DNA from: Escherichia phage UB
Sequence record: MH383160
Strand: one strand, 5' to 3'
DNA length: 64,000 bases
Below are positions 5,736-23,227 of this stretch, one piece after another. A model generated the notes under the pieces. It saw only the letters and a list, made by a program, of their open reading frames with translations, ran no database searches and was not told the origin of the DNA. Numbering within the stretch: the stretch's first letter is position 1; the number at the start of each line of letters is the position of its first letter. Both the position numbers and the translations under genes were made by a program.

Positions 5736-5762
5736 ATCTTCTCCTGTCCTCTATTAAAAGCG

Positions 5763-5791: not shown

Positions 5792-5799
5792 GACATAAA

Positions 5800-5822
5800 C
5801 ACAAAAAGACCCATAAGGGTCT
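5800..5822 (-). terminator. intrinsic terminator
   Basis: hairpin AGACCC-ATAA-GGGTCT directly after stop of 5823..6389, U-rich tail on minus strand (T-run also on plus strand). Confidence 0.5.
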
Positions 5823-7436: not shown

Positions 7437-7914
7437 TAAAAGCCCTCTTTAATTCTTTTACATTTTTAATGAATACTTTCATTGCAGAAATCTCAAAAGA
7501 TAATGTATTAAATTTGCAGTACTTTTTAAAGTACGACATTATGAATAACATTTTGAGTTCTTTTTCTGTGTAAATTAAACTATTTTGAAAGTAACTTTCT
7601 TCTGATAAATCATCAAGAAACGGATATAAAACTCCATTTGTTCTCAAGAACATGATACCTTCACTCCATGATCTAAATGAAAGGTAATCAGTCTTACCAC
7701 ATTCATATAAGGAGTTTATCATTCCATCAATCATTAAGGAGAACTCAATACTGTATCCTAATCTTTCACACTTGTATCTCTTATCTTCTTTCTTTGTAAT
7801 TACGAAGTGATGACCCAGTGAGTCTTTGTTATCGAAAATGAAATCAACTGTCTCTAAACACTCCTTAGCGAACTTCATAGTTTCTCTGTACTTTCGGTTC
7901 ATTAGTCTCTCCAA
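7420..7914 (-). CDS. FQ-motif family protein (hypothetical)
   Basis: ORF track 164 aa; motif EESYFQNSLIY. Confidence 0.65.
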   Translation of the reverse strand: MERLMNRKYRETMKFAKECLETVDFIFDNKDSLGHHFVITKKEDKRYKCERLGYSIEFSLMIDGMINSLYECGKTDYLSFRSWSEGIMFLRTNGVLYPFLDDLSEESYFQNSLIYTEKELKMLFIMSYFKKYCKFNTLSFEISAMKVFIKNVKELKRAFNVHRK

Positions 7915-8315
7915 ACTTTACCAGGGAAGTGTTTCTCGTAGTACTCATCATCACTTAACATATAATCAGGAGTTTCTACTTCTATGGTTTTGAAGATTGT
8001 TTCTGGAATGTGTGTGACTTTATTGGGTTGTACTTTATGTTCGCGTAAAACCTTCTGTATCGCTCCTAGACGTTGTAAATCGATACATGTAGGAAAGACT
8101 AAGCTGTACTGAAATAGCTCGTCGGGGGTCATTATAGACACATCCTTAGCTTGTTTGATTTTATTGTTGGCATCAATGAATATATCAAATCCTTGTACAG
8201 CATTATAGCTTACATAGGTTGTTTTATTTTTGTCAATAGGAGCACTTAAACGATATCCATATACCCCGTGTTGGTCAACAATGCATCGTTGCATAATTTT
8301 AATCATTTCGAACAT
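7902..8315 (-). CDS. FQ-motif family protein (hypothetical)
   Basis: ORF track 137 aa; motif PDELFQYSLVF. Confidence 0.65.
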   Translation of the reverse strand: MFEMIKIMQRCIVDQHGVYGYRLSAPIDKNKTTYVSYNAVQGFDIFIDANNKIKQAKDVSIMTPDELFQYSLVFPTCIDLQRLGAIQKVLREHKVQPNKVTHIPETIFKTIEVETPDYMLSDDEYYEKHFPGKVWRD

Positions 8316-8661
8316 AATTTACCTCGTATGTGTTATAATTCCACGCTTTAACACTATCCATTTGTATATCCTGAACTTCATGGAAATATTTAAGTACCTT
8401 CTGGTATTCCATTATTTCATATACATCTTCAGTATTGACAGTGCTCTCCTGAAACAATTCCTCTTCTGATAAAGTACTATAATCCGGGATTTTTATTTCA
8501 GAATATATCTCATTCATATATGAATCATTTTGGTAAATCTGTAGATAAAACTGATTATATTCAGGGATATAGGTTACGAAATGGTTCTTGTTGAATTCAT
8601 ATCTTGAAGCAAAGCATTCATTGCCATCCGTCATGTACTGAATTGTTTTCTTATTTTGCAT
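8299..8661 (-). CDS. FQ-motif family protein (hypothetical)
   Basis: ORF track 120 aa; motif EEELFQESTVN. Confidence 0.65.
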   Translation of the reverse strand: MQNKKTIQYMTDGNECFASRYEFNKNHFVTYIPEYNQFYLQIYQNDSYMNEIYSEIKIPDYSTLSEEELFQESTVNTEDVYEIMEYQKVLKYFHEVQDIQMDSVKAWNYNTYEVNYVRND

Positions 8662-9121
8662 TCAAATAATCCACGCATTTATAGTAGACTGCTAAATCTA
8701 AAAAGAATCGTTGATTGTATTTGTAATGATTAAGTAGTGCACCATAAAATAACATAGCATTAAGTACTTTTACATCATGAATACAAGAACCCTGAAAGTA
8801 CATTTCCTCTGACATGAAGACTAAATCATTATACGGAACAAATACTGCTTCTCTAAATGTATCAATATTAATCTTCAAATCAGACCCAGGGCAATATGAA
8901 ATGTATTCGGCTTTGTAATGAAAGTCATTATCATCAAAGTACTCCGCGTAGATTTGATTACCTCTACCATTAGTAAATGCTAGTCTTCCTTTAGATGAAC
9001 TGAACTCATCGTATTGAAACATACCACCAAAAGGCTTAGGACTTCTGAACTCCTTTGCAATGCGATAGATATTTTCTGTAAATTCTAAAACACCATAGTA
9101 ATCATATTCTGTAGTAATCAT
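8651..9121 (-). CDS. FQ-motif family protein (hypothetical)
   Basis: ORF track 156 aa; motif EEMYFQGSCIHD. Confidence 0.65.
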   Translation of the reverse strand: MITTEYDYYGVLEFTENIYRIAKEFRSPKPFGGMFQYDEFSSSKGRLAFTNGRGNQIYAEYFDDNDFHYKAEYISYCPGSDLKINIDTFREAVFVPYNDLVFMSEEMYFQGSCIHDVKVLNAMLFYGALLNHYKYNQRFFLDLAVYYKCVDYLNAK

Positions 9122-9594
9122 AAACCATTTTTCTCCAGGTACTCAATAATACAATCGACATTGTTCAGGTCCAAGTAGAAATGATCACTATCGGAATTTA
9201 GTTCATTTTTAAGGGCTGTTAAAATCACTGAACTGAAAACAATCCTCTCTGGATACACAGTACTGTACTGGAAGAACTCTTCTTCAGTGTTAATTACAAT
9301 CGTATTAAATGCTTCATTTATAAGAAGATGATTGTAGTATTTGAAATTATCTGAACTTGGAAAATGGTATGAAATAAAATCACCACTTGGTACTTCATCA
9401 AGTACTCTAATGCTACAAGTTGATTCATCTGAACTATAGAGTAACCCATCCATAAAGGAAAGGTATCCATTTCGTTTAATAACTTTATGTTCCCCCACGG
9501 AAAAATCTTCAGTAACATTCGCAAGGAATTTATAAACCCTGATAATGTCTTTTGCTATTTTTTGTGCATTGCTAAATGATAGGTCTTTGGACAT
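9118..9594 (-). CDS. FQ-motif family protein (hypothetical)
   Basis: ORF track 158 aa; motif EEEFFQYSTVY. Confidence 0.65.
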   Translation of the reverse strand: MSKDLSFSNAQKIAKDIIRVYKFLANVTEDFSVGEHKVIKRNGYLSFMDGLLYSSDESTCSIRVLDEVPSGDFISYHFPSSDNFKYYNHLLINEAFNTIVINTEEEFFQYSTVYPERIVFSSVILTALKNELNSDSDHFYLDLNNVDCIIEYLEKNGL

Positions 9595-9627
9595 TGTGAT
9601 ATAACCCTTTACAATTAATATAAAGAG

Positions 9628-9658
9628 ATTATATCACAAAGAATCGGAGGGTGTCAAG
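9628..9658 (-). promoter_or_regulatory. sigma70-like promoter (consensus hexamers)
   Basis: minus strand TTGACA-N18-TATAAT in 59-bp gap upstream of 9118..9594; -35 overlaps stop of upstream gene. Confidence 0.55.
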
Positions 9659-10190
9659 ATGGGTTGCGAAGTTCTACCATTTCTTTCCAAACTAATTGGT
9701 AATCTTCTAAGTCCAGATAGAAGTCTTCATTCCAGTGCTCATGAAAGTACTTATACATGAATAGAACTCCTAAATCGTATGCAGGAAACAATAATGATAG
9801 TTGAAAGTAGTATTCCTGATTTAAAACTATATCAATGAACTCTAATGTACGTATGCCACCTTTCGATGAACGTATCTCAATGTGTGAGGTATCCTTTATA
9901 CTGTAACACATGAAACCGCCTCTGAATTCTGGATCATATTCACATTCGAACTGCTCACTGTTGTTATAGAAATCTCTCCCACTTTCTTTATCTTTCGGTC
10001 TACGTACTGATACATGAATATTGTTATCACGGTACATTGAACGATTTAGTATTTTCAAACATTTGAACTTATTTTCTTTAATGAACTTGATAATATCAAT
10101 TATATCTTGTGCAGTACTGATAGCTGATTCGAATGTATCCAACTTAAGATGATTATATTGTGTTCCATTGTTCATTTTTTCATCTAACAT
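9654..10190 (-). CDS. FQ-motif family protein (hypothetical)
   Basis: ORF track ORF trimmed to internal ATG (10190) preceded by GAGGT RBS; motif QEYYFQLSLLF. Confidence 0.6.
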   Translation of the reverse strand: MLDEKMNNGTQYNHLKLDTFESAISTAQDIIDIIKFIKENKFKCLKILNRSMYRDNNIHVSVRRPKDKESGRDFYNNSEQFECEYDPEFRGGFMCYSIKDTSHIEIRSSKGGIRTLEFIDIVLNQEYYFQLSLLFPAYDLGVLFMYKYFHEHWNEDFYLDLEDYQLVWKEMVELRNPS

Positions 10191-10197
10191 ATAAACC

Positions 10198-10533
10198 TCA
10201 TAATTCATACATTTTTGATTTGAACTGCATATGACCACCTATTTCACATGGATAACAATTCATAATTTTGTTCAATAAAATCTGGTATTTTTTAATAACT
10301 TCTATATCAATTTTTATATTACTATTAAAAACTAATGATTCTTGAAATAATTCACCCTCGTCAAGTGAAGTAAAATCATTTATCTTCAACGGTATATTGT
10401 TGCATCGCAAGGAGAATGTATTTTCATCACGAATTAAAGTATAGAAATCATTATGTTTTTTATTATAATCAAATTTCACAAGTAGTAGTTTAATATGAGT
10501 AGCGTACATTACTTTCACTAATTCAGTCTTCAT
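10198..10533 (-). CDS. FQ-motif family protein (hypothetical)
   Basis: ORF track 111 aa; motif EGELFQESLVF. Confidence 0.65.
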   Translation of the reverse strand: MKTELVKVMYATHIKLLLVKFDYNKKHNDFYTLIRDENTFSLRCNNIPLKINDFTSLDEGELFQESLVFNSNIKIDIEVIKKYQILLNKIMNCYPCEIGGHMQFKSKMYEL

Positions 10534-10885
10534 AACGGAATAAAATTCTCCTGTACTGCTCCGGTCCAGTACTCAATCTCTTCACTGGATAATTATCAAA
10601 GATTCTTTTCATTTCTTTCTGGATTAAACATAAGAAATCAAAGTTACAATCGTACTTATTATCCCATACTAAACTTTCTTGGAATAACTCATCCTCTTGC
10701 ATTAGTGTAGTGTCAATTACATCTTCACGAACATAGCTATATACTTCATAGCTCTTGAAGCCATCTTCTGATAATTCTAATTCATATGCCGCCATATCAA
10801 ACATATCATCATGGTTTGTCTTCAATGATATTAAACAAGTAACTAATTTTTTAGTTGTATAGTATGTAATACTTAATGTGTTCAT
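10523..10885 (-). CDS. FQ-motif family protein (hypothetical)
   Basis: ORF track 120 aa; motif EDELFQESLVWD. Confidence 0.65.
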   Translation of the reverse strand: MNTLSITYYTTKKLVTCLISLKTNHDDMFDMAAYELELSEDGFKSYEVYSYVREDVIDTTLMQEDELFQESLVWDNKYDCNFDFLCLIQKEMKRIFDNYPVKRLSTGPEQYRRILFRYED

Positions 10886-10890
10886 TTGTT

Positions 10891-11493
10891 TTATACCTCA
10901 GTATAAAGCTTACAATAGCTTTCATCAAAATCACAAACACTTCTCAAGTACTGACACAGGTCAGTAAAAATATTTACATTTGCTATATATACATTATCAA
11001 ATTCTACTCGTTGAAAGAATGTATGCATAGAATTTGTAATATATCTCATTGCAGATTCACGTTCCATCGTTAAATCATTTGTGAACATTGCATCTTCATC
11101 AGTACTGACTAATTCAATATCAAATGATTGCATATATGGAATACTCTTTCCTAGGGCATAACTATCACCATATGATGCTTCTACTGCACCTTTAGAATAC
11201 ACCAATTGATATAAGTCCGAAATAGGGTTATAAAACGTGCGGCAAATTGAGGAACATAATTTATTATTCATCCAATAGAAAACCCTATTTGAATTACCGT
11301 CAAATGCTATACGCAATCCATCACCATCTAGAGTAATAATCCCATCCAGCATAAAAGAGAACTGAACTAATGCTTTTTCTAAGTCCATTCTTTTGTGATA
11401 AATGATTTCTTGCATATAGATAATATCATTTACTAATTTCTTAAAAAACAAATGCACATCTGCACTACAACATTTATTTGCATTTATTGGCAT
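10891..11493 (-). CDS. FQ-motif family protein, divergent (hypothetical)
   Basis: ORF track 200 aa; degenerate motif DEDAMFTNDLTM. Confidence 0.55.
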   Translation of the reverse strand: MPINANKCCSADVHLFFKKLVNDIIYMQEIIYHKRMDLEKALVQFSFMLDGIITLDGDGLRIAFDGNSNRVFYWMNNKLCSSICRTFYNPISDLYQLVYSKGAVEASYGDSYALGKSIPYMQSFDIELVSTDEDAMFTNDLTMERESAMRYITNSMHTFFQRVEFDNVYIANVNIFTDLCQYLRSVCDFDESYCKLYTEV

Positions 11494-12044
11494 AATAGTT
11501 CCTTATACATATTATGTACTTTACAAATCTCATTATAGTATTTCATATCAATATCATTTGTATTAAAAACGGAAACAGACAATACCGCTAAATCATCAAT
11601 GAAGTAATTATTATCGGCGTACTCTTTTAACTTATTGAACATATAGATGCATTTTATACTTAATTCATCATGCAACACACTGTTCTGAAAAATATTCTCT
11701 TCAGTATTAGGAGATAAGTAATCTTCAATTATATACGATAAACTACTATCGCAATCTTTATAGATTGAAATTGATGGATGTAATGTGTCATACATTACAC
11801 TAAACAGATCACCGTCATATGTGGATATTAAACTATTATTGGAAACAGTAGGATGATAATATTTCAGTACTGAAAACTTTGAACAATCAGTGCAGTAAAA
11901 ATGATCCATCCCTCGACGACTTTCGTATGAGAATAGTTTACTTGTATATTCAATCCCTTTGGTGCGACGGATTGTTTCATGCATTTCTGCACATTGCATT
12001 AAAATTACCATACGTTCAAACGCAAGATCTAAATCATCGTACAT
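11484..12044 (-). CDS. FQ-motif family protein (hypothetical)
   Basis: ORF track 186 aa; motif EENIFQNSVLHD. Confidence 0.65.
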   Translation of the reverse strand: MYDDLDLAFERMVILMQCAEMHETIRRTKGIEYTSKLFSYESRRGMDHFYCTDCSKFSVLKYYHPTVSNNSLISTYDGDLFSVMYDTLHPSISIYKDCDSSLSYIIEDYLSPNTEENIFQNSVLHDELSIKCIYMFNKLKEYADNNYFIDDLAVLSVSVFNTNDIDMKYYNEICKVHNMYKELLCQ

Positions 12045-12225
12045 AACGGATATCCTTCTTCAACGAATTAATATATTCCAAAATAACTTGTTCCTGATAT
12101 TGAGTTCCCAAGTACATCAGGACTTTCAACTCTTTGAATTCAGTACTATATGAGTCTGTTTGCATCATTCTAGTAGAATATATATTGAATAGTTTAGCAA
12201 TGTCATTTTGGTCTATTATTTTCAT
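12034..12225 (-). CDS. LGT-QE family small protein (hypothetical)
   Basis: ORF track 63 aa; core YLGTQYQEQ. Confidence 0.55.
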   Translation of the reverse strand: MKIIDQNDIAKLFNIYSTRMMQTDSYSTEFKELKVLMYLGTQYQEQVILEYINSLKKDIRYVR

Positions 12226-12421
12226 ATATTCTCTTCTGGATTAGTTCCTGTAAGTGCTGAATATAACCCTTCATTGCAACATCCTGTTTGTTAGAGCCAA
12301 CGAAGAACAAGAGCTTAAAGTCATGGTAATCCATTTTTGGTTTAGTAGTGAACCATATGTCCCACACTGCACTCACAGTTCTCATGTATTCAATTCGATT
12401 AAATGTTTTTGAATACTTCAT
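12203..12421 (-). CDS. LGT-QE family small protein, divergent (hypothetical)
   Basis: ORF track 72 aa; core FVGSNKQDV. Confidence 0.5.
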   Translation of the reverse strand: MKYSKTFNRIEYMRTVSAVWDIWFTTKPKMDYHDFKLLFFVGSNKQDVAMKGYIQHLQELIQKRIYENNRPK

Positions 12422-12935
12422 CGATGTTCATCGCCAATAAGTTAATATACAAATTACTGTTAAATGCTATCTGCAATTCCATATAGAACTGAATGATAGC
12501 ATAGTCAGGGTCAGTACACGATAGTTGAAAGCACTGTTCTTCAAATGAATTGTAATTGTACTTAGGGATGTGAATTTCACGCTTCAAATCAGGTTGACCC
12601 CACTTCATCGCGTACACACCAATGTTATTGTTCTTTTTCCTTTTCTTAAATGTTAATTGTTGAATATTTCCTGCGTCATCCAGGAAAATAGTATTATTCG
12701 ACACAGGTGCACCAATAGAAAACAATGATGTATCAATTACGTGTGTCGCACGCACCTCACACTTCTGGAATGCCCCAGTACCCTGTAATACATAATGAAA
12801 ATTGTACTTCTCATTAACAACAGTACTAGGATCGATTAAACCAGTACTGCATTTTTTGAGTACTGGTACAATGGTGCGAATCTTTTTTGATAAATCTTGT
12901 AATGCATCAAAGTCATTGATGTTAACTTTCATCAC
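12399..12935 (-). CDS. FQ-motif family protein (hypothetical)
   Basis: ORF track 178 aa; motif EEQCFQLSCTD. Confidence 0.6.
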   Translation of the reverse strand: MMKVNINDFDALQDLSKKIRTIVPVLKKCSTGLIDPSTVVNEKYNFHYVLQGTGAFQKCEVRATHVIDTSLFSIGAPVSNNTIFLDDAGNIQQLTFKKRKKNNNIGVYAMKWGQPDLKREIHIPKYNYNSFEEQCFQLSCTDPDYAIIQFYMELQIAFNSNLYINLLAMNIDEVFKNI

Positions 12936-13381
12936 TCGAATGTAGCCTCTTCAGTAGTAACAAAATTGGTTAGTGTATCCAGTTCAGCAGTGTCAAGATA
13001 AAATACATCTAGTACAGATTTCTGATATATTACACTGAATGTGCATAGATTGTCAAGTGTTCCTTGTTCATAAACAGTACTACCCTGGAAGTACCCTTCT
13101 TCAGTACTCAGGGATAAAATATCTGAAATTTTAAAAGATTCTTCAGTTGCATGTCTTTCTATATTAACTATATTGCCGTTTCGGTTCAATGAAATATAAT
13201 CGTATGCTAACTCAATTAGACTATAATTATCCGCATTAGTGTCAAATAAAGCGACAATTTTTCGTCTCAATCTCTCATCGTGATCATGGTTTTCATCAGC
13301 TAAGTATTCAGGATTTTCTTTGAAGAATTTAACGACGCGTAGAATATCATTTGCTTTCTTGATTGCACTTTCGTAACTCAT
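12932..13381 (-). CDS. FQ-motif family protein (hypothetical)
   Basis: ORF track 149 aa; motif EEGYFQGSTVY. Confidence 0.65.
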   Translation of the reverse strand: MSYESAIKKANDILRVVKFFKENPEYLADENHDHDERLRRKIVALFDTNADNYSLIELAYDYISLNRNGNIVNIERHATEESFKISDILSLSTEEGYFQGSTVYEQGTLDNLCTFSVIYQKSVLDVFYLDTAELDTLTNFVTTEEATFE

Positions 13382-13686
13382 AATAATTCAACCACTCCAT
13401 CTCTAAAGTACATATAACTACCACCATTGGATACTGTGAATTCTATTGTCCCCAATAATATATTATATTTTTTTATTTCACATGTAGTACTTGTAGTGTA
13501 AGGCTCACCATCTCCTAAGTACATTGACATATGACATAGAACTTTTCTACCAGCATATTTCTCTTCAAACGATTGTTCAAAACTATGCATAATTTGATTT
13601 AAAGCTGAAATGTAATTAATAAAGTCAGGTATTTCTGTCAATGAATTATAAACCGTACAAAGTGAATCAAATTCATTTTTAGTCAT
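13378..13686 (-). CDS. hypothetical protein
   Basis: ORF track 102 aa; 4-nt overlap with upstream gene. Confidence 0.5.
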   Translation of the reverse strand: MTKNEFDSLCTVYNSLTEIPDFINYISALNQIMHSFEQSFEEKYAGRKVLCHMSMYLGDGEPYTTSTTCEIKKYNILLGTIEFTVSNGGSYMYFRDGVVELL

Positions 13687-14000
13687 TATATTTCTATCTC
13701 AATGTAATCCTGTGTGATTAAATAATCCCAATGATACTTCACCTGCTTTTGTAATTCAATTAACGTAAAGAAGTTGATCGATTTATCCCATACGAGCGAT
13801 TCCTGGAAAATAAATGATTCATGTTCATCGTAATAATCACACTCTAAAAAATCAGGTATATATTCACTATCGTGAATGTATTCAACAAACGAACTAGCTT
13901 GGCATTTCTTTACTACTAGTAATAATGAATTATCATGATCAAACAGATACAATAAACTAATTTCACCAGGGACGTACTGAACACTGAATAAGTTTTTCAT
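13686..14000 (-). CDS. FQ-motif family protein (hypothetical)
   Basis: ORF track 104 aa; motif ESFIFQESLVWD. Confidence 0.65.
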   Translation of the reverse strand: MKNLFSVQYVPGEISLLYLFDHDNSLLLVVKKCQASSFVEYIHDSEYIPDFLECDYYDEHESFIFQESLVWDKSINFFTLIELQKQVKYHWDYLITQDYIEIEI

Positions 14001-14449
14001 TCTATACCTTCTGGATCTTTACGAAGTTCTTCGAAATCCAAATAAAATCGAGGACAGTTAACACTCTTTAAGTACCACATAATAACTAATGCTTCAAGTA
14101 CTTCATCATCGTAAACAGTACTGTTTTGGAAGTAATACTCTTCACTATCCCACGGACCTTCCAGTACTTCATAATTCAAAATTAATGGTTTTTTGCGATT
14201 AATAAAACGAATGCTACCATTTTCAACATAACTAATAAATTCTGCATCTCTATTGTATTCAGAAAACGATATAGGACTATTGGAATTCAACCCAAGAATA
14301 ACCCTTACACCAACGGAGTTATTATACATTTCATCCTTGTAGTAGTTGCCGTTCTCGGCTTTGTACACTTCTTTGAACTTTCCTGCCTTTATATCGTCAA
14401 AGTATCCATGTAGTTCTTTTGCTTTTTCAAGAGCACTTTGTAATGACAT
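13997..14449 (-). CDS. FQ-motif family protein, MSLQSALEKAK subgroup
   Basis: ORF track 150 aa; GPWDSEEYYFQNSTVYD...IMWYLKS; one of 5 tandem paralogs. Confidence 0.7.
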   Translation of the reverse strand: MSLQSALEKAKELHGYFDDIKAGKFKEVYKAENGNYYKDEMYNNSVGVRVILGLNSNSPISFSEYNRDAEFISYVENGSIRFINRKKPLILNYEVLEGPWDSEEYYFQNSTVYDDEVLEALVIMWYLKSVNCPRFYLDFEELRKDPEGIE

Positions 14450-14915
14450 TACCTTCTCCTACAGTATTCTCTACATATTCATAATCAAAATAGAAACTAC
14501 TGGAGTCAATACTTTTGAAATACCACATAATTACAATAACATCTAATTCTTCTTCATTGTACAACGTACTATTCTGGAAGTAATATTCTTCACTATCCCA
14601 CGGTCCTTCCAGTACTGAATAAGGAATGATAGTGTCATCAGCATCACTATCTGTGTTGTAGATGGTAATATCTTCATTACGGCAATAACTAATGTACTGA
14701 TTGTACATATGATATTCACAGTTATCACTGTCACCAGTATCAGTGTGCAGTACTAATGTTTCTGCACATATCTCGGACTCGTCATAATCGTCACGGTCTT
14801 TTACAAAAAATTCAGTATCAGATGTTTTATACACCCCAGGTACTGAACCTTCCTGTACCATAATCATGTACTCATGAATCTTCTTTGCTTCTTTCAATGC
14901 ACTTTGTAACGACAT
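14427..14915 (-). CDS. FQ-motif family protein, MSLQSALEKAK subgroup
   Basis: ORF track 162 aa; GPWDSEEYYFQNSTLYN...IMWYFKS. Confidence 0.7.
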   Translation of the reverse strand: MSLQSALKEAKKIHEYMIMVQEGSVPGVYKTSDTEFFVKDRDDYDESEICAETLVLHTDTGDSDNCEYHMYNQYISYCRNEDITIYNTDSDADDTIIPYSVLEGPWDSEEYYFQNSTLYNEEELDVIVIMWYFKSIDSSSFYFDYEYVENTVGEGNVITKCS

Positions 14916-15358
14916 TACAAATCCCCTGTACTTAAATATTCACATGCTCCCCAGTCAAGAAAAAATGGTTCAAACTTCAATTCCTTAAAGTACCACAAAA
15001 CAACCAAGGAATCAAGCATTTCTTGGTTAAAAATAAGACTCTGTTGGAAGTAATACTCTTCAGTACCCCACGGGCCATCAAGTACCCCGAAGTCAACAGG
15101 TGTATTTGATGTGTCAAACGTAATCTTAGTACCTGGAATATATACAAAAAAACTAGTATATTGACTACATGAAGAGTACTGTATAGTATTGTCTTTATCC
15201 TGTCCCATAAGTAAAATATCATCAGAGTATGTCTTTATACCTGATAGATAATACTCATCACCAAATGCACTTACTTTATCACCATAGAACCCACTTTTTA
15301 TGTTATCGTGGAAGTGATGTATTCTGTGTGCTAGTTCAAGTGCACTTGCTAAACTCAT
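14915..15358 (-). CDS. FQ-motif family protein, MSLQSALEKAK subgroup
   Basis: ORF track 147 aa; GPWGTEEYYFQQSLIFN...VLWYFKE. Confidence 0.7.
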   Translation of the reverse strand: MSLASALELAHRIHHFHDNIKSGFYGDKVSAFGDEYYLSGIKTYSDDILLMGQDKDNTIQYSSCSQYTSFFVYIPGTKITFDTSNTPVDFGVLDGPWGTEEYYFQQSLIFNQEMLDSLVVLWYFKELKFEPFFLDWGACEYLSTGDL

Positions 15359-15825
15359 ATATCCTCTTTAATAACTCGTAGTAGATCCAAGTCCAAATAG
15401 AAGCTAGGACAATCTGTATTATTAAAGTACCACAGAATGACAAGCTTGTCAAGTACATCTTCCTCGTAGATAGTATTCTGCTGGAAGTAGTACTCTTCAC
15501 TTCCCCAGTCATTATCCAGTACTGAATACGGAAGATGTTTCTCTGCTGCACCAGATATAATGTCAGAATCTTGTATTAAAATATCAGCATCACGACAGAA
15601 GTACATGTAATTATCTTCCAAATTAACATCACACCCATTGAGTGTTGTTTCAGAAGAATCTAAGTTTTCTTCATACATGTGAATGTACTCACTACTGTCA
15701 TCGTATCTCATTCGACAATAAGATTTACCTTCCTTGAATAGATATCCATTAAGACAATTTGCTACAATTTCTTTGCTGCATAAATCAATTAACTTCGCAA
15801 TCTCTAATGCTCTTTCTAAACTCAT
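15355..15825 (-). CDS. FQ-motif family protein, MSLQSALEKAK subgroup
   Basis: ORF track 156 aa; NDWGSEEYYFQQNTIYE...ILWYFNN. Confidence 0.7.
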   Translation of the reverse strand: MSLERALEIAKLIDLCSKEIVANCLNGYLFKEGKSYCRMRYDDSSEYIHMYEENLDSSETTLNGCDVNLEDNYMYFCRDADILIQDSDIISGAAEKHLPYSVLDNDWGSEEYYFQQNTIYEEDVLDKLVILWYFNNTDCPSFYLDLDLLRVIKEDI

Positions 15826-15826
15826 T

Positions 15827-16318
15827 TCAACCCCTGTTAATACCGTTATCTACAGTTTTCTTTACGTATTTGTAATCGAAATAGAAGTTCCCAGAACCAA
15901 TACTTTTAAAGTACCACATAATTATAATAACATCAAGTACTTCATTATCATATACAGTACTTTGTTGGAAGTAATACTCTTCACTATCCCACGGACCTTC
16001 CAGTACTTCACTCGGAATTATAATGTCATTGGAATCGCTGTCAGTACTGTTGATGGTATCTGTATCATTAATATAGACCATGTACTCATTATGCATATTA
16101 ATGAAGCATTCATAATCATTAGGGTCGGTATCTAGTATGCACGTTTCTGTATCCAGTACGCACGTTTCTGTATCTGAGCAGTCATTATAAAGGAGGTTAT
16201 CCGGTACATAATATTGAGTACTTGTGTCTTTGAAAACACCGTAAACTGAACCTTCTTTTGCCATATTCATGTACTCATGAATCTTCTTTGCTTTTTCCAA
16301 TGAACTCTGTAATGTCAT
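15827..16318 (-). CDS. FQ-motif family protein, MSLQSALEKAK subgroup
   Basis: ORF track 163 aa; GPWDSEEYYFQQSTVYD...IMWYFKS; internal short tandem repeat ETCVLDTETCILDT. Confidence 0.7.
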   Translation of the reverse strand: MTLQSSLEKAKKIHEYMNMAKEGSVYGVFKDTSTQYYVPDNLLYNDCSDTETCVLDTETCILDTDPNDYECFINMHNEYMVYINDTDTINSTDSDSNDIIIPSEVLEGPWDSEEYYFQQSTVYDNEVLDVIIIMWYFKSIGSGNFYFDYKYVKKTVDNGINRG

Positions 16319-16327
16319 TTTATAATC

Positions 16328-16687
16328 TCATATATTGAAATAATAATTATTCGTTCTTGATGGGGATGGATTAAATACGTTTTCTTTTTCAAATCTCTTC
16401 ATTTCATTTTGCAAAGAAACCATTTCTTCAAATGTACAGGAGTACTTATTCTTATCAAACACTAATGCAGCCTGAAATAGTTCGCCATCGTCCAGTACTG
16501 TATAATCTATAAGACTCTCAGATTCATAGTCATAGTCGTCATGTGATACATGAATAAATTTAAAACAAGAATCTTTGTAATGCATATATAAACTCAACTC
16601 ATGTTCCGAGTCGCCCTTAATAAGATTACAGCACAAGTCCCATCCTTTAGGTAACTTATAATAGTACATAGAATAATCATATGTCAT
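16328..16687 (-). CDS. FQ-motif family protein, ELFQxxLVFDK subgroup
   Basis: ORF track 119 aa; DGELFQAALVFDKNKYSCTFEEM. Confidence 0.7.
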   Translation of the reverse strand: MTYDYSMYYYKLPKGWDLCCNLIKGDSEHELSLYMHYKDSCFKFIHVSHDDYDYESESLIDYTVLDDGELFQAALVFDKNKYSCTFEEMVSLQNEMKRFEKENVFNPSPSRTNNYYFNI

Positions 16688-17043
16688 TCTTGAATTCCTA
16701 AATTGAATTTGTATTCTTGATTAATACTTGCATTGGGTTTATGCAAAGCAGCATACTCTTTCATTTCATTTTGTATTGCAATAACTTCTTCAAATGTACA
16801 CAAGTACTTCTTATCAAATACTAATGATTCTTGGAATAGTTCTGCGGTATCCATTAATGTATAGTCCGGCATATCTTGGTGTGGATACTGTAATGAACTG
16901 TAATCAATGAATGTAAATTTACCCTGAGTGTAATGAATATACTCATTCGCACTGTGCATTAAATCACCTTTGTTTAAATTACAAAAGTACTGATAACTGT
17001 GCTTGAAAGTATGTACTGATATTAAAAAATCAAATTCCATCAC
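16684..17043 (-). CDS. FQ-motif family protein, ELFQxxLVFDK subgroup
   Basis: ORF track 119 aa; TAELFQESLVFDKKYLCTFEEV. Confidence 0.7.
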   Translation of the reverse strand: MMEFDFLISVHTFKHSYQYFCNLNKGDLMHSANEYIHYTQGKFTFIDYSSLQYPHQDMPDYTLMDTAELFQESLVFDKKYLCTFEEVIAIQNEMKEYAALHKPNASINQEYKFNLGIQE

Positions 17044-17417
17044 TCTTCTCCTAGATTAAAAAATTTCCAGAAATCGGCCTCACCAGTACTGCACCAGATA
17101 TCTATACATTCCCTGTGAATACATTTAATTCTACGCTGTAATTCAATCATCTCTTCTAATGTACAGATGTACTTCTTATCAAATACTAATGCCTCCTGGA
17201 ACAGTGCAGCATCATCAAGTACTGTATAGTCCGGCATCTCGATAGATATCCCATGAAACCCAGTACTAAAATCCATCAAATAAAAGTCAGCATTCCAGTA
17301 CTTTAAAATCTTGTCCCTAGCGTAGTTTAAATCACCCTTGTATAAGTTAGAGTGCGTAACTAACTCACCAGTGTACATCCATGTCCTTGCACAAAATTCA
17401 TTATATTTTATTTCCAT
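17040..17417 (-). CDS. FQ-motif family protein, ELFQxxLVFDK subgroup
   Basis: ORF track ORF trimmed to ATG 17417 (MEIKYNEF) by length comparison with the two paralogs; DAALFQEALVFDKKYICTLEEM. Confidence 0.6.
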   Translation of the reverse strand: MEIKYNEFCARTWMYTGELVTHSNLYKGDLNYARDKILKYWNADFYLMDFSTGFHGISIEMPDYTVLDDAALFQEALVFDKKYICTLEEMIELQRRIKCIHRECIDIWCSTGEADFWKFFNLGEE

Positions 17418-17614
17418 CTTAATCTCTACTATAATTAATAAGGTAAACTCCAATATAAGGAGCACGTTGCGGGGGCGGGGTATTTTTTGTTTCAGGAAAC
17501 ATGAACTGTACTCTGAAAAACACAATATAAAACTTTATATTAAACATATACCTTAGCATGTTTTTCAGCGGAAATTTTTTTGACCCCCCTGCGGCCTGTA
17601 AAAATGAAACGTCT

Positions 17615-17824
17615 CTATTTATTCAGCCTAGAAAGCTTGATTTCTTCAATCCTTTTCATCGCACAAAGCCTTCGACTCGTCATCTCGTATAAATTCAATA
17701 CTCGGTGTACCGTATTATCTACACTCTGAACCAAATATGTATCCTTCAAAATCAAATCCATCATGTATTCAAAACCCTTAATACTATGCGAACTTAACAC
17801 TTCCGGCTCTTCAAACGTAATCAT
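17615..17824 (-). CDS. hypothetical protein
   Basis: ORF track 69 aa. Confidence 0.45.
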   Translation of the reverse strand: MITFEEPEVLSSHSIKGFEYMMDLILKDTYLVQSVDNTVHRVLNLYEMTSRRLCAMKRIEEIKLSRLNK

Positions 17825-18041
17825 AATTCCAATCCCCTATCCCATCTAACCTTCTAAGATATCTTGCGTAAATTATTTCGAAATATCTGTGCAACGAAAT
17901 TACGGATTGCTCATAATCATCATTCCTGTACATTGTGCATGTAAGAAAATCATTTAACCCAAAATCTAAACTGCACTTGAACTTCTCCTTTGCAATATCA
18001 CTATTACTTGCACTTTTCATAATAAACCCTTTGTACCGCAT
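17811..18041 (-). CDS. hypothetical protein
   Basis: ORF track 76 aa. Confidence 0.45.
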   Translation of the reverse strand: MRYKGFIMKSASNSDIAKEKFKCSLDFGLNDFLTCTMYRNDDYEQSVISLHRYFEIIYARYLRRLDGIGDWNYDYV

Positions 18042-18174
18042 TGGTGTACTGTGAACTCAGCACCACTAATAGGTAATCTATATTGTAAGCACGATTTCCT
18101 CGTTGACTAGCACGGCTGGAATAAAGAATATTATCCACATATGTATTGAACTGATCTTCAAATAACTCTTTCAT
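18004..18174 (-). CDS. small hypothetical protein
   Basis: 56-codon ORF (MKELFEDQFN...) filling the 18042-18195 gap; below ORF-track length cutoff; weak RBS. Confidence 0.3.
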   Translation of the reverse strand: MKELFEDQFNTYVDNILYSSRASQRGNRAYNIDYLLVVLSSQYTNAVQRVYYEKCK

Positions 18175-18195
18175 CAGCATTATCCCATCACATAA

Positions 18196-18747
18196 TCATA
18201 CATTAACAACTTTATCGATGTAATCTTCTAACATATCAATATATCTGGTATTGGTTCTAACTAAAAGGTATGCAAATCCAGAGAACTCATGTGTATAATG
18301 CTTTACAGCGTACATACAACGAAGCTTATCATTGTCATACATTGTACTGTACTGAAACAAACTCTCGTCTGATAGCTCTAATAACGCTTGGGCTTCACTT
18401 CTCGTGAACTTCATAGGGTCATGTACTGCATCACAAAAACAAACCTGTGTCTCGCTATTGAAACCCTGTGATAGATATATACCTTCACACTCTGAACGCA
18501 CCGATACTGCATTATAACTATGTGTTGCCCCCATCATATCTGAACTCAAAACTAAAATCAACCCATTTTTATTTTTAATCAACAAATCTGACTTAAGGGA
18601 TTTGATCTCCGTATGGGAAATATCACCAAATCTTCCTGGGACTTCAAACTTATCAACGTTGTATACAATCTTTTGTACTTGCTCTTTTAAACGCTTAATT
18701 GCACTTCTGTCTTTTTCTAATGTATCTAATAAACTCATTGAACTCAT
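18196..18747 (-). CDS. FQ-motif family protein (hypothetical)
   Basis: ORF track ORF trimmed to internal ATG 18747 with AAGGA RBS; motif DESLFQYSTMYD. Confidence 0.6.
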   Translation of the reverse strand: MSSMSLLDTLEKDRSAIKRLKEQVQKIVYNVDKFEVPGRFGDISHTEIKSLKSDLLIKNKNGLILVLSSDMMGATHSYNAVSVRSECEGIYLSQGFNSETQVCFCDAVHDPMKFTRSEAQALLELSDESLFQYSTMYDNDKLRCMYAVKHYTHEFSGFAYLLVRTNTRYIDMLEDYIDKVVNV

Positions 18748-18757
18748 TGTGCTTTCC

Positions 18758-19102
18758 TTACATATTTGTACCGAACAAAACGGAACTTTGAATGCCATTA
18801 ATCGACACTTCATGTACATATATATTTTGTCTGAACAAAGGAACTAATTGAACTAAACTCGTTTGCATAATAATATGCATATGTACATTGTCATATGCCG
18901 TTTCGTATTGGAAACGTGCAGCTTCATCTTCTATGAAATTCGGAACTTGGACTGGATTCTCAAAATTTGTCCTTGTACTGAACTGTACATCATTGTCCTG
19001 TACCTTAATACCATATGAATTATCATTGTTATCAACTACATCAAATTCAATTAAACTACCATCTTTACTGACGTTTACTATATAAACCGAAAATCGACTC
19101 AT
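18758..19102 (-). CDS. FQ-motif family protein, divergent (hypothetical)
   Basis: ORF track 114 aa; motif DEAARFQYETAYD. Confidence 0.55.
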   Translation of the reverse strand: MSRFSVYIVNVSKDGSLIEFDVVDNNDNSYGIKVQDNDVQFSTRTNFENPVQVPNFIEDEAARFQYETAYDNVHMHIIMQTSLVQLVPLFRQNIYVHEVSINGIQSSVLFGTNM

Positions 19103-19614
19103 AAACCTATTTCCTCTAAATCTTTGACAAATGTATCATAATCCGATAATGACAAAAATATGTCTGTACTGATGTTTTGACGTAATGTATTAAACAAATT
19201 ATGTACCTGTAATAAATCAGGTGCATAAATCAGGGATTGCTGGAAATACGATTCTTCTGTATCTAATATATCCCTGCACTCAATTTCACGAACTCGTTGG
19301 TATATTGAATTTAATAATACATTTTCATCTTTGAGCATTGGAAGGTATCGGATGTACATGTGCTCCATCAACTCATCCTGGATTGAACCCCTGAACTGCA
19401 ACACGTATTCAAAACACATCACTACATCTTGTAGGTAATTGGCACTGTAATTATTGCTGTAAACAATCTTATGACTTCTGAACTCATCATCATTTCTGAA
19501 CCAATTGTCACCTACTTTGGTGTACTTATGACTAAGCTTCCCATCCTCCAACGCTCGAATGAACTTCATAATGTTAATTGCAAAATCATATGAATGATGC
19601 TTGTGTTGATGCAT
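19099..19614 (-). CDS. FQ-motif family protein (hypothetical)
   Basis: ORF track ORF trimmed to ATG 19614 with GAGGT RBS 6 nt upstream; motif EESYFQQSLIY. Confidence 0.65.
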   Translation of the reverse strand: MHQHKHHSYDFAINIMKFIRALEDGKLSHKYTKVGDNWFRNDDEFRSHKIVYSNNYSANYLQDVVMCFEYVLQFRGSIQDELMEHMYIRYLPMLKDENVLLNSIYQRVREIECRDILDTEESYFQQSLIYAPDLLQVHNLFNTLRQNISTDIFLSLSDYDTFVKDLEEIGL

Positions 19615-19621
19615 TTTTACC

Positions 19622-19816
19622 TCAATTCTGTCCGAAAAAATAACCAAAATGTTTAAAGCAAGAAAGCATTACTATGTTCATCACTCTATCATCAAATTCA
19701 TCTTGTGTTTCTGCACATAATGTTTCACAGATATTCAAATGTAATAATTCAAGCTGGAAACTGTCGGTGAACCAATCAAACTTACGGTATTTTTGTTTAA
19801 CATCAACTGTAAGCAT
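19622..19816 (-). CDS. hypothetical protein
   Basis: ORF track 64 aa; abuts neighbours. Confidence 0.45.
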   Translation of the reverse strand: MLTVDVKQKYRKFDWFTDSFQLELLHLNICETLCAETQDEFDDRVMNIVMLSCFKHFGYFFGQN

Positions 19817-19817
19817 A

Positions 19818-20441
19818 CTATATATCCAACCCTTTTACAACATCTACGAAATGTTCAAACACTTCTTTTGAAAAATAACCACCTTCACAAAAAAGCATAC
19901 TAAACGGTGGCAGCATGTCCGATAACTCTTTAGCTAAATTGATTTCTGCTCTTAACTCTTGAACATCAATGATATCATGTACTAAAGATAATTGAAACAT
20001 GAATGCATCTACATCTTCATTCATTTCTGAATTGTAATATAACTCTTCAGGGAATTTGTCGGTTTCGTAATAATAAAAAACTTTATTGTTGAACACACCA
20101 CTAATAGGAACATCATTTTCATCTTTCTTTGAAATGTTTGTTTCCCATGACTCTATATTATTAGGAACAAAAAAATCATAGGCTGACTTTGAACCCTGTA
20201 CTGAATCCAACTTTATTCCATAATATTCCGTATCCATGTATTTCTGCTGTAATGTAATACCACGTGTACTGACATTCACTTGGAATATATCATCTTTATC
20301 TGGAACACTAAATGGAATACATAACACTGAATTCTCAGGGTATTTGGCAATGAATGCATCCAGCACTTTATTAAGCACTGGAATGGCAATTTTACTGTAC
20401 TGCATCAAATCATACATTTTAATTCTGGTCATATCATTCAC
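19818..20441 (-). CDS. FQ-motif family protein (hypothetical)
   Basis: ORF track 207 aa; motif DAFMFQLSLVHD. Confidence 0.65.
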   Translation of the reverse strand: MNDMTRIKMYDLMQYSKIAIPVLNKVLDAFIAKYPENSVLCIPFSVPDKDDIFQVNVSTRGITLQQKYMDTEYYGIKLDSVQGSKSAYDFFVPNNIESWETNISKKDENDVPISGVFNNKVFYYYETDKFPEELYYNSEMNEDVDAFMFQLSLVHDIIDVQELRAEINLAKELSDMLPPFSMLFCEGGYFSKEVFEHFVDVVKGLDI

Positions 20442-20973
20442 CTGTGTATGTTTTCACCCTTAGCGATTCAAAATCCCATACATCACTGATTGTACCATTG
20501 TGCCTGTAATCATAATATTCTACTAATACATTATACAATAACTTCAACGATACAAATTCATGATTCCACGGAGCTTTATTGTCATGAACACATTTGGTGA
20601 TATAAGGTATAATATATAAACTAAACAACACTAATGGTGAATGTATACATTGCATTTGAAAATATTCTTCTTCTTGCATACAATGTTCAGGAATAATTAG
20701 ATCATAATGTGTCTCAAATAAATGTAAACCTATTGTGGTTTTTTTCGTATCACATGCGTACCATATTGTACTATCCGAAATAAATGGAATGATACCATTA
20801 TTGTTTGCAATGTACATCATATGGTAAGAGCGATTTGTCTTGTTAAATATCTCGATACTTTCGATATTACTACAAATCATGTATTCAAGGCAATCAATGA
20901 TCTTATCTTTAAATGTACCAATTTCATTGAATGACATTGCTTTCTGTACTTTTGATACTGTTGTACTGCTCAT
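20434..20973 (-). CDS. FQ-motif family protein (hypothetical)
   Basis: ORF track 179 aa; motif EEEYFQMQCIH. Confidence 0.65.
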   Translation of the reverse strand: MSSTTVSKVQKAMSFNEIGTFKDKIIDCLEYMICSNIESIEIFNKTNRSYHMMYIANNNGIIPFISDSTIWYACDTKKTTIGLHLFETHYDLIIPEHCMQEEEYFQMQCIHSPLVLFSLYIIPYITKCVHDNKAPWNHEFVSLKLLYNVLVEYYDYRHNGTISDVWDFESLRVKTYTGE

Positions 20974-21512
20974 ATGTTCTCCTTAAAAAAATCCAAATAC
21001 TCTTCATTGAAAGCATATGTATCATCTTTTTTGTTATGCACCACATAATCATAAAGAGCTATGAATGCAGGGATTATGATCTTACATGATTTATTATTGT
21101 ATTTGTACTGCTCCAAATCAACGGTGTTCAATTTAGCAATAAGCATAGCAGCAAAGATATCTTCATGGCGGTGTACTGTGCTGTACTGAAAATACTCATC
21201 CTCTCCAATATCGGGATGATATAACGGTATAACCAAATTATTACGAATTGACATTTTATATTTTTGTAATGCAGCTAAATGCATGAACCACAATCTATCT
21301 TCATGGAAAGATGGAAAAATAATTTTGTCTGTGCTAATAAAAATTTCTTCATTTCGATTATTTGTCACAAGAGGTGCATACATTTTAATTTTTGCAGATT
21401 TAATAATTAAATTAAAAATATAATGAATCTTATGAACTGCACTTGATGCATCTTCGTATGTACTTGGGATTATGAAACTCACTATATGTTCTCCTTTAAA
21501 ATGAATACACAT
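20970..21512 (-). CDS. FQ-motif family protein (hypothetical)
   Basis: ORF track 180 aa; motif EDEYFQYSTVH; true start may be GTG at 21482 after AAAGGAG RBS because ATG 21512 lies inside the promoter -10. Confidence 0.6.
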   Translation of the reverse strand: MCIHFKGEHIVSFIIPSTYEDASSAVHKIHYIFNLIIKSAKIKMYAPLVTNNRNEEIFISTDKIIFPSFHEDRLWFMHLAALQKYKMSIRNNLVIPLYHPDIGEDEYFQYSTVHRHEDIFAAMLIAKLNTVDLEQYKYNNKSCKIIIPAFIALYDYVVHNKKDDTYAFNEEYLDFFKENI

Positions 21513-21539
21513 GATAACAGCTTTGGTCTTCTATGTCAA
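21511..21539 (-). promoter_or_regulatory. sigma70-like promoter
   Basis: minus strand TTGACA-N17-TATCAT immediately downstream of terminator. Confidence 0.45.
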
Positions 21540-21544
21540 TACCA

Positions 21545-21586
21545 AAACGAAAAAAGCCCATATCTTACGATACAGGCGTTATGGGC
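21545..21586 (-). terminator. intrinsic terminator
   Basis: minus strand hairpin GCCCAT-19 nt loop-ATGGGC followed by UUUUUUCGUUUU; overlaps stop of 21565..22071. Confidence 0.5.
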
Positions 21587-22071
21587 ATGTTGATTTGAAT
21601 TTCATTGTACAAATCATCAATATATAGACATGAAAAAAATACACTATCTTGTACTATATTGTTGTGATAAAGCATTTTAAATACTACATAAAAAAATAAA
21701 TCAATATCATCGTGGACTAAATTCTGCTGGAACCACCACTCGTCTGTTAAATCTTGTGCATTAAAATCATCAGGAACTTCAATGAACGACATATCACAAT
21801 CTTCTTTGTACTCAAACCACATGTCGTCATTCGGATAACGTTCATGCTTCTCTGGGTAACAATTGCTGGGATTAAATGTTAAAATATTAAACCCCGTAGA
21901 GCAACGTTCTTTATTTAAAAATGTATTATTCCATACCTGATATTTTTCACCAACATCAAGCTCTTCTGTTACTGATTTTATTGCACATAATGTACTGTAT
22001 ATTGTTTCTATCTTGTGAACATATTTAAATGCAGCATCTAAGCTGAACTCTAAATCATACATGTACTGCAT
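21565..22071 (-). CDS. FQ-motif family protein (hypothetical)
   Basis: ORF track 168 aa; motif DEWWFQQNLVHD. Confidence 0.65.
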   Translation of the reverse strand: MQYMYDLEFSLDAAFKYVHKIETIYSTLCAIKSVTEELDVGEKYQVWNNTFLNKERCSTGFNILTFNPSNCYPEKHERYPNDDMWFEYKEDCDMSFIEVPDDFNAQDLTDEWWFQQNLVHDDIDLFFYVVFKMLYHNNIVQDSVFFSCLYIDDLYNEIQINMPITPVS

Positions 22072-22391
22072 AAAATTACCTCAACTAAAGCAAGGACTGT
22101 ATTGAATTCCACTATACTTGTAATTCCTTGAAGGTACATGTACTTTGCTACTACATATTTCTGTACTAAATTATAATTATTAAATTCCTCAAAATTGTAA
22201 TTTAGAACATAATCTGTACTCAAAAATATCTTATGCATCTCTAATGCACTTTGATAATACGCGTACAACTCACGGATATCAATACTGGTTAAATTATATT
22301 GTTCATATCTATGATACGGGATGGCTTCAATTTCAATACTATAAAACCATTCTCTTAACTTATTAATATCAAATGTATTATTCAGCTTCAT
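22050..22391 (-). CDS. hypothetical protein
   Basis: ORF track 113 aa. Confidence 0.5.
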   Translation of the reverse strand: MKLNNTFDINKLREWFYSIEIEAIPYHRYEQYNLTSIDIRELYAYYQSALEMHKIFLSTDYVLNYNFEEFNNYNLVQKYVVAKYMYLQGITSIVEFNTVLALVEVILCSTCMI

Positions 22392-22944
22392 AACTCAATA
22401 CCTCCATTAAACACTCATACACACCGTCAATCGCATAAGCACAAAAATTGAAATTAATTTTGTGATTCTTGTGTAATGGACTATTGTGTACTGTACTCAT
22501 TATGACATTATAAAATAACAAACGCACTGGTACAAGCATTGAACCTTGGAAAAATTCTTCCTCTGATTTATATGTATTGTACTCTATTGCGTTGTTCGTT
22601 TCTTTATCATATGTTACCATTACTAACGGGGCATTTTTATTATACCATGCGTACTCTAAATCATTCTTTCCAATAACAGAACCAGGTGCGAAATCCAAAA
22701 GACCAATAACACTACGGGCATTTGGTATATCTGGTGTATTGAATCGTTTATCAAAATGACTCGTGCACGCAATATATGTATTGTACTTCGATGGAATAAT
22801 ACCAATACATTTGTGGAAATGACGCTTGTGATATTTCTGGGCATTATATAAGGCTGCAACAATACAAGCTAACTTTTGTCCCATAAGGATGGCATTAGCG
22901 TAGGTGTACTGAATTTCATTGCTGGTATGGTACTTCGAGGTCAT
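22378..22944 (-). CDS. FQ-motif family protein (hypothetical)
   Basis: ORF track 188 aa; motif EEEFFQGSMLV. Confidence 0.65.
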   Translation of the reverse strand: MTSKYHTSNEIQYTYANAILMGQKLACIVAALYNAQKYHKRHFHKCIGIIPSKYNTYIACTSHFDKRFNTPDIPNARSVIGLLDFAPGSVIGKNDLEYAWYNKNAPLVMVTYDKETNNAIEYNTYKSEEEFFQGSMLVPVRLLFYNVIMSTVHNSPLHKNHKINFNFCAYAIDGVYECLMEVLSYEAE

Positions 22945-23227
22945 AATATTTCCTTTGCCATATCATGGGCTTAAAATCAATAACAGCTTTCTGTATCTTT
23001 TTTAATAATAAGACATCATAACCACCCGTGTCAATCACTAATTGCTGTTGGAACAATTCTTCATCGGATAATGTATTGAAATCTACAAAATAATCTGTAA
23101 CTATCGAATCATTTAAATGTGCCATGTACCAACCTGAACTTCTTGAATAAATCAAATTCCACCCATCGTCATCATCTTCTAATTCAACATAAATCATATC
23201 TGGGGTATACATCATTTTATACTTCAT
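22916..23227 (-). CDS. FQ-motif family protein (hypothetical)
   Basis: ORF track 103 aa; motif DEELFQQQLVID. Confidence 0.65.
   Translation of the reverse strand: MKYKMMYTPDMIYVELEDDDDGWNLIYSRSSGWYMAHLNDSIVTDYFVDFNTLSDEELFQQQLVIDTGGYDVLLLKKIQKAVIDFKPMIWQRKYYDLEVPYQQ

Follow-up and report, generated by a model that had tools for sequence, protein, structure and literature searches.

Eight small adjacent genes lie at positions 13997-17417 of a 64,000-nucleotide stretch (the window) of Escherichia phage UB (sequence record MH383160), an Asteriusvirus jumbo coliphage with 93-99% nucleotide identity to the group of PBECO4, 121Q and BF17. All genes of the window between about 1 and 53 kb are on the minus strand, and the eight belong to an array of 42 open reading frames (ORFs) carrying the motif [ST]-E-E-x-x-F-Q-x-S-[LT], which we refer to as the FQ family. 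An earlier note, made by reading the letters of the window, had described the eight as two sub-clusters, of five and of three genes, that arose by recent tandem duplication or were kept alike by gene conversion. All eight ORFs were recovered at the positions below, while the peptide patterns quoted for them proved to be consensus strings rather than exact matches.

738..27487, minus strand: whole FQ-family array, 42 co-oriented, tightly packed ORFs of 103-207 amino acids (aa)
13997..14449, minus strand: g13997, 150 aa, long form, phrog_9317, net charge -10; absent from phage A4
14427..14915, minus strand: g14427, 162 aa, long form, phrog_9317, net charge -26
14915..15358, minus strand: g14915, 147 aa, long form, phrog_9317
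15355..15825, minus strand: g15355, 156 aa, long form, phrog_9317
15827..16318, minus strand: g15827, 163 aa, long form, phrog_9317; used for the long-form AlphaFold2 model
16128..16174, minus strand: 21-nucleotide (nt) tandem duplication inside g15827, 2.2 copies, 92% match, encoding ETCVLDT/ETCILDT
16328..16687, minus strand: g16328, 119 aa, short form, phrog_15629
16684..17043, minus strand: g16684, 118 or 119 aa depending on the start (ATG, 17040; GTG, 17043), short form, phrog_15629; used for the short-form AlphaFold2 model
16958..17042, minus strand: 85-nt stretch at the 5' end of g16684; single copy in the window, twice in BF17, G17 and 121Q
17040..17417, minus strand: g17040, 125 aa from the ATG at 17417, short form, phrog_15629

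The start of g17040 at 17417 follows the annotation of phage G17, whereas BF17 and 121Q are annotated from a downstream ATG at 17378 (112 aa). The five long genes begin with MSLQSALEKAKELH, MSLQSALKEAKKIH, MSLASALELAHRIH, MSLERALEIAKLID and MTLQSSLEKAKKIH. The string GPWDSEEYYFQ(N/Q)ST is exact in three of them and reads GPWGTEEYYFQQSL and NDWGSEEYYFQQNT in the remaining two; MPDYT is found in two of the three short genes, the third having LIDYT.

Two sub-clusters in the FQ array

Within each sub-cluster the proteins are related over most of their length. Pairwise blastp alignments score 83-166 bits over 139-161 residues in the five-gene set and 73-82 bits over 87-119 residues in the three-gene set (E values of 1e-21 to 1e-56), against at most 49 bits for every other pair among the 42 array members. 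The similarity is therefore not confined to the motif, and the grouping of the eight genes into two sub-clusters stands. The five long genes match the hidden Markov model (HMM) of phrog_9317 over its full length (E 4e-55 to 9e-66, about positions 1-158 of 160), as the three short genes match that of phrog_15629 (E 1.5e-54 to 8e-60, about 1-121 of 121). At the DNA level a block of 145 nt is shared by the five copies at 67-78% identity, together with a further block of 218 nt at 77%. The short direct repeat that had been noticed inside g15827 is likewise real, being the 21-nt tandem duplication listed above; it is common to the window, BF17, 121Q and G17 but single-copy in phage A4.

The array as a whole covers about 27 kb, roughly 8% of the genome of a RaK2-like jumbo phage (about 350 kb), and is made up of long forms, with an N-terminal helix and a C-terminal FYLD, short forms and a few unrelated ORFs between them. 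For 36% of its members the best match lies at most two genes away (permutation p<1e-4). Across the 42 members the codons at F and Q are evenly used (TTT:TTC 21:21; CAA:CAG 18:24), and the motif is therefore constrained at the protein level; we accordingly rejected the idea that it is a DNA-level site for recombination or regulation. HMMs built from long and from short members cross-match members left out of each model, and in the roughly 140 kb of phage sequence examined their matches were limited to the array, bar one weak match just downstream. The long and short profiles align with each other over the motif only (hhalign probability 89%, 29 columns).

Age and turnover of the sub-clusters

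The copying that lies behind the two sub-clusters is ancient, not recent. In codon alignments the paralogs share 28-58% of their amino acids and 47-69% of their nucleotides, with synonymous differences at a proportion of 0.52-0.76. Synonymous divergence (dS), calculated by the NG86 method, which is unreliable at saturation, ranges over whole genes from 0.9 to unmeasurable (infinity) in every pair, and is still 0.6-1.95 in the best-aligned conserved blocks of the N- and C-termini. The low synonymous divergence expected of young copies was thus not found: paralog values lie far above the pooled dS of 0.19 between the window and its 121Q orthologs, for which the pooled ratio of nonsynonymous to synonymous divergence (dN/dS) is 0.21 (range 0.05-0.37, 11 genes). 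Even the closest pair of paralogs, g14427 and g15827, has only 58% aa and 69% nt identity at a dS of 1.4, a divergence close to that of window-Turkey5 orthologs (56-61%).

The distribution of the copies points the same way. The 3.5-kb region is matched at 80-99% nucleotide identity by 35 Asteriusvirus records from Escherichia and Salmonella phages (PBECO4, 121Q, BF17, G17, phAPEC6 and others), in which every gene beneath the match is annotated as 'hypothetical protein', and in nearly all 35 genomes a tblastn search with g14427 locates five matching places. A neighbour-joining tree pairs each of the five long genes with a separate 121Q ortholog (bootstrap 100%). Orthologs are 85-100% identical through most of the genus, as against 28-58% for paralogs, and among the roughly 35 genomes the copies are not confined to one or a few close relatives but have one-to-one orthologs. 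Phage A4 holds orthologs of four of the five long genes, and Turkey5 one, of g15355 (61% identity). The identities of the A4 proteins to those of the window are 95% for g14915, 92% for g15355, 81% for g15827 and 60% for g14427, a spread among adjacent orthologs that suggests either mosaic exchange or rates that differ strongly inside the sub-cluster. Given the saturated dS between paralogs and a separate ortholog for each copy across the genus, 'recent' is therefore unsupported. What holds of the earlier claim is that the duplications were in tandem, since the genes are adjacent, co-oriented and the most alike in the array.

An outer limit for these events is offered by Klebsiella phage RaK2, of a different genus, whose ORF412-440 form an array syntenic with this one. 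The motif occurs in at least 26 ORFs there, and 18 match the HMM; methylase and cytidyltransferase genes, the same in both, follow downstream in RaK2 and in the phage group of the window. Nine reciprocal-best pairs link the two arrays, and five of the nine are collinear (g8651, g6334, g4023, g3089 and g2524). Most of the array is therefore older than the split of the genera. The five-gene set has one reciprocal-best counterpart in RaK2 and the three short genes essentially none, and the two sub-clusters thus arose later, as expansions specific to Asteriusvirus.

Members of the array continue to be gained or lost within the short sub-cluster. Between g16684 and g17040, BF17, G17, 121Q and at least four other phages carry a segment of 529 bp (longer in 121Q; compared in BF17 at L001 4462-5075), in which lie one more gene of the family (123 aa, MKKEIRIQ...) and a truncated duplicate of g16684 that comprises its first 27 codons. 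Direct repeats of 85 bp, 96.5% identical in BF17, border the segment on both sides. In the window, in PBECO4 and in at least nine further phages the repeat is single and the segment missing; among closely related phages it is present in at least seven and absent from at least 11. At the same place, position 17043, identity to BF17 steps from 99.8% on the low-coordinate side to 93.7% on the high side, which marks a mosaic junction left by recombination between phages. The search for recombination breakpoints that the earlier note had proposed thus yielded both this junction and an indel bounded by repeats. In addition, dS to 121Q swings between 0.08 and 0.32 from one gene to the next, phage A4, which lacks g13997, has its neighbouring genes differently arranged, and Turkey5 has three long and two short members, interleaved and in a different order.

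Based on these observations, we believe that the eight genes represent a pair of old sub-families, both part of the large FQ family of tandem genes (about 42 in 27 kb), and that this family evolves by birth and death, a reading to which we would give a probability of about 0.7. Co-oriented tandem paralogs whose neighbours are often their closest relatives, orthologs that are retained beside gains, losses and a gene remnant, and purifying selection (dN/dS 0.21) are the features on which it draws. In this reading, the five long-form and three short-form copies arose by local tandem duplication in the Asteriusvirus lineage, later than the split from the lineage of Klebsiella phage RaK2 but earlier than the radiation of PBECO4, 121Q and A4. 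The copies then diverged to synonymous saturation while purifying selection kept them as separate genes. Members of the array are still gained or lost by homologous recombination between short paralogous repeats, short tracts are duplicated by slippage, and mosaic junctions remain where phages have exchanged DNA.

It could be argued that the sub-clusters are recent tandem duplicates after all, alike because little time has passed since they were copied. They are indeed the most alike in the array, they are adjacent, and it is at exactly this spot that copy number differs between closely related phages. However, the copies differ from one another at a dS of 0.6-2, whereas window and 121Q orthologs differ at 0.19, and each copy has an ortholog of its own across the genus; this explanation is therefore highly improbable. 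Short-tract gene conversion, ongoing or episodic, that homogenises the N-terminal and FQ-motif segments of otherwise old paralogs is a somewhat better candidate, albeit still an unlikely one. An exact run of 46 nt over EVLEGPWDSEEYYFQ joins g13997 and g15827, with 16 consecutive identical synonymous codons, a run of 27 nt is identical at the N-termini of g14427 and g15827, GAAGAGTATTACTTCCAA is common to three of the five long paralogs, and in most pairs identical codons exceed the expectation from codon usage (for example, 37 observed against 25.7 expected). Yet the runs test on synonymous codons gave nominal p values of 0.010 and 0.016 in two of 13 pairs, neither of which survives correction for the 13, and the two 121Q counterparts of the 46-nt stretch have acquired two and three different changes, independently of each other. 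Family-wide the motif has no synonymous-site preference, and position-specific codon bias (TAC 12 against TAT 3 before F) could account for part of the excess. Nor were paralogs within a genome closer than orthologs between genomes; orthologs are far closer, and there is therefore no concerted evolution. Gene conversion is accordingly not demonstrated; the identical runs are suggestive at most, and may stem from old, short conversion events.

A different view is that the sub-clusters are at least as old as the other array members and that stronger constraint and slower evolution have kept their members alike. Saturated dS hides relative ages, and some members do have a low ortholog dN/dS, such as 0.05 for g14427. 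Against this, the ortholog dN of sub-cluster genes is not unusually low overall, and g14427 itself is just 60% identical to its positional ortholog in A4. Furthermore, the sub-clusters have few counterparts in RaK2 while other members keep collinear orthologs there, which points to lineage-specific expansion, and we therefore consider uniform age with slow evolution to be very unlikely.

Relatives, promoters and flanking regions

Although the eight proteins have already been clustered automatically in PHROGs, as phrog_9317 and phrog_15629, both of 'unknown function' and with weak links to phrog_12674, phrog_13866 and phrog_34017 (likewise 'unknown function'), that resource splits the array into many families and captures neither the family-wide FQ motif, nor the array structure, nor the link to RaK2. 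The many paralogs of RaK2-like phages have been the subject of a general remark (PMC3622015; PMC5259590); these papers concern the same phage clade, whose ORF412-440 in RaK2 are syntenic with and homologous to the array, and they give the general statement only. A literature search of incomplete coverage returned no description of the FQ family, its motif or its sub-clusters.

Detailed analysis covered seven related loci. Beyond them, an exhaustive profile search collected 160 representative clusters at 50% identity, all of small proteins, whereas a word-indexed homolog search returned Asteriusvirus-type proteins only, and a scan of IMG/VR with the five-gene sub-family gave no match besides 121Q. 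An uncultured contig of 108.9 kb (L007, from Joint Genome Institute metagenome 3300007747) has at least 20 consecutive FQ-family genes at 5.5-19 kb of the locus and is without nucleotide similarity to any cultured phage in the collection compared; the family therefore reaches beyond the known genera.

Upstream of the array in the direction of transcription lies a group of strong promoters:

35264..52854, all minus strand: 12 perfect sigma-70 consensus promoters (TTGACA-N16-TATAAT)

The 12 compare with 0.05 expected by chance, and the segment that they span looks like a dense early-promoter region. Most of them include AGTACTGTATAAT, an extended -10, and the ORFs of the region are tiny (50-100 aa) with intergenic gaps. 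Three identical palindromes of 20 nt, GGATTGACTCCGGTCAGTCC, are found on the minus strand at 34970-34989, 37228-37247 and 40495-40514 and can form hairpins of 8-12 bp; a TTGACT -35 box lies within the stem and is followed by a TATTAT -10. Presumably, these elements resemble the promoter-early stem-loop cassettes of T4-type phages.

Inside the array there are a few promoter-like sites that match at 11 of 12 positions. One such site, with an extended -10 (21539-21511), directly follows a terminator-like hairpin on the minus strand (21577-21556; 9 bp, then TTTTTT), and the two together (21511-21577) occupy one of the array's few intergenic gaps, which suggests that the array is split into several transcription units. 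An Rfam scan of 12-30 kb gave no match, and the 200-nt intergenic region upstream of g17040 has no structure by folding (z = +0.36). A second, smaller set of related ORFs is also found inside the array, on the minus strand at 12034-12225, 25236-26045 and 27477-27752 (63, 269 and 91 aa); by eye, their translations share L(Y/S)LGT(N/Q)YQE...YI(N)xLK near the N-terminus.

Downstream of the array are genes for RNA repair and nucleotide metabolism. At the other end of the window, coding strand and GC skew switch near 54 kb. In the segment of about 53-64 kb, genes on the plus strand from about 57 kb onwards are the counterparts of those for the 'RCC1' repeat proteins of PBECO4 and, by genome position, appear to be those encoding the virion-associated 'DNA condensation proteins' of phAPEC6 (gp549, gp551 and gp003-010).

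Predicted fold and possible roles of the family

Scans of the eight proteins against Pfam, NCBIfam and PADLOC gave no match above threshold, the one sub-threshold hit being DUF6051 (E 0.07). AlphaFold2 models are nonetheless confident for both forms. The long-form model of g15827 (predicted local distance difference test score, pLDDT, 86.7; predicted template modelling score, pTM, 0.82) runs from an N-terminal helix through five or six strands to the motif helix, which is followed by a long helix, a strand and a final helix. In the short-form model of g16684 (pLDDT 86.3, pTM 0.82) five strands precede the motif helix, and a long helix and one strand come after it. In BFVD, significant structural similarity was limited to uncharacterised proteins from 121Q, RaK2, GAP32, the Yersinia fHe-Yen9 phages and Serratia phage BF, and no solved structure resembling the predicted fold was found. 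From the models, a variable beta-sheet region would be followed by a conserved helix that bears the F and Q of the motif and is probably capped by its S/T-E-E, to which the long forms would add a conserved N-terminal helix and a C-terminal FYLD strand. Conservation across the family is limited to F and Q, invariant in two of three family alignments and above 90% in the third. The family is also acidic, with a median isoelectric point of 4.7 and a median net charge of -9 (-10 to -26 in the five long genes).

We suggest, tentatively and at appreciably less than even odds, that the FQ proteins are non-structural, non-enzymatic and mostly acidic cytoplasmic proteins, made early or delayed-early by the host RNA polymerase, each of which would use its variable region to bind a host or defence target of its own, the FQ helix serving as folding core. 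Other roles have been considered, namely virion or decoration components, enzymes, or substrates of a Q-specific protease that recognises YFQ or LFQ. Phages of the 121Q and phAPEC6 type do carry hair-like fibres and are described as 'hairy' (PMC7824862; PMC7247149), which would suit a virion role. However, the phAPEC6 virion proteome (Table 1) includes no family member, with nothing between gp347 and gp549, and the g15827 ortholog is gp442c. That F and Q alone are conserved family-wide, with no candidate catalytic residues, argues against an enzyme. As for a protease substrate, tobacco etch virus (TEV) protease recognises the pattern E-x-x-Y-x-Q-G/S, and LFQ occurs in the human rhinovirus 3C (HRV-3C) site. 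Two members fit the former, with EEGYFQG in g12932 (12932-13381) and EEMYFQG in g8651 (8651-9121), and many others have LFQ. These resemblances are probably due to chance, since the position following Q is under no constraint (N, Q, L, E, Y, G, M, K or A) and the motif is modelled within a helix of the fold rather than in an exposed linker. Taken together, we would give these other roles hardly any weight. The two TEV-like sites do matter in practice, when FQ proteins are expressed with TEV-cleavable tags.

Several points should be set against the account of birth and death and the functional proposal attached to it. Saturated dS gives no absolute date for the duplications, and the 529-bp event can be read as an insertion or a deletion alike. 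The tree is a simple neighbour-joining one in which the bipartition of the sub-families has a bootstrap of only 40-44%. The link between long and short forms consists mainly of a 29-column motif match and a similar order of predicted secondary structure, homology beyond the motif being putative. There is no strong promoter in 12-19 kb, promoter-like sites across the array (12-30 kb) are not above the level of shuffled sequence, and the early timing of the FQ genes is deduced from their position. Finally, no homolog of known function was found for the FQ proteins.

Amplification of one small domain to dozens of copies in a single jumbo phage genome is not unique to this clade, as Bacillus phage G has about 35 zinc-ribbon copies in a lineage-specific expansion (Iyer et al., 2021, PMC7824862). 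In contrast to that case, the FQ proteins have a predicted alpha/beta fold with no metal ligands and no neighbour among solved structures, and the family is shared across genera. Among eukaryotic viruses, the multigene families (MGF) 110, 360 and 505 of African swine fever virus (ASFV) and the K3L amplification of poxviruses are known as multigene families or 'genomic accordions' with roles in host interaction. Like these, the FQ genes form co-oriented tandem arrays of diverged paralogs that differ in copy number between isolates and evolve by birth and death. They are found in a bacterial virus, however, and have no relationship in sequence or fold to the eukaryotic virus families; moreover, the array lacks the recent amplification of near-identical copies that defines an active accordion. 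The hyperplastic regions of T4-type phages, reportedly described by Arbiol and colleagues in 2010, are said to hold small early ORFs together with cassettes of promoter and stem-loop. Both those regions and the present one combine phage mosaicism with blocks of small, co-oriented, uncharacterised genes that lie downstream of strong sigma-70 early promoters, some with the -35 in a hairpin. However, the ORFs of the T4-type regions are mostly unrelated, whereas the FQ ORFs are one family, and the promoters are clustered outside its array.

Taken alone, the two sub-clusters are old tandem paralogs of an ordinary kind, and the whole family is the more notable finding: an array conserved in at least two genera, under purifying selection and with confident predicted structures, has had no annotation. 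It is possible, though we hold it more doubtful still than the functional proposal above, that the FQ array is an arsenal, not described before, that RaK2-like jumbo phages possess throughout the clade (Asteriusvirus, Alcyoneusvirus, probably Mimasvirus and Eneladusvirus, and uncultured relatives). It would comprise dozens of small acidic proteins of a new fold in which the FQ helix scaffolds a hypervariable sheet, each copy neutralising a different host factor or defence system and the whole evolving by birth and death like the ASFV and poxvirus families, with the two sub-clusters as the latest expansions, marking recent selection in coliphages. If the FQ proteins are indeed target-specific binders, the array would be a ready-made library of inhibitors of host and defence proteins and a counterpart, in a bacterial virus, of the multigene families that giant eukaryotic viruses carry, and the coliphage-specific five- and three-gene expansions would be the obvious first candidates.

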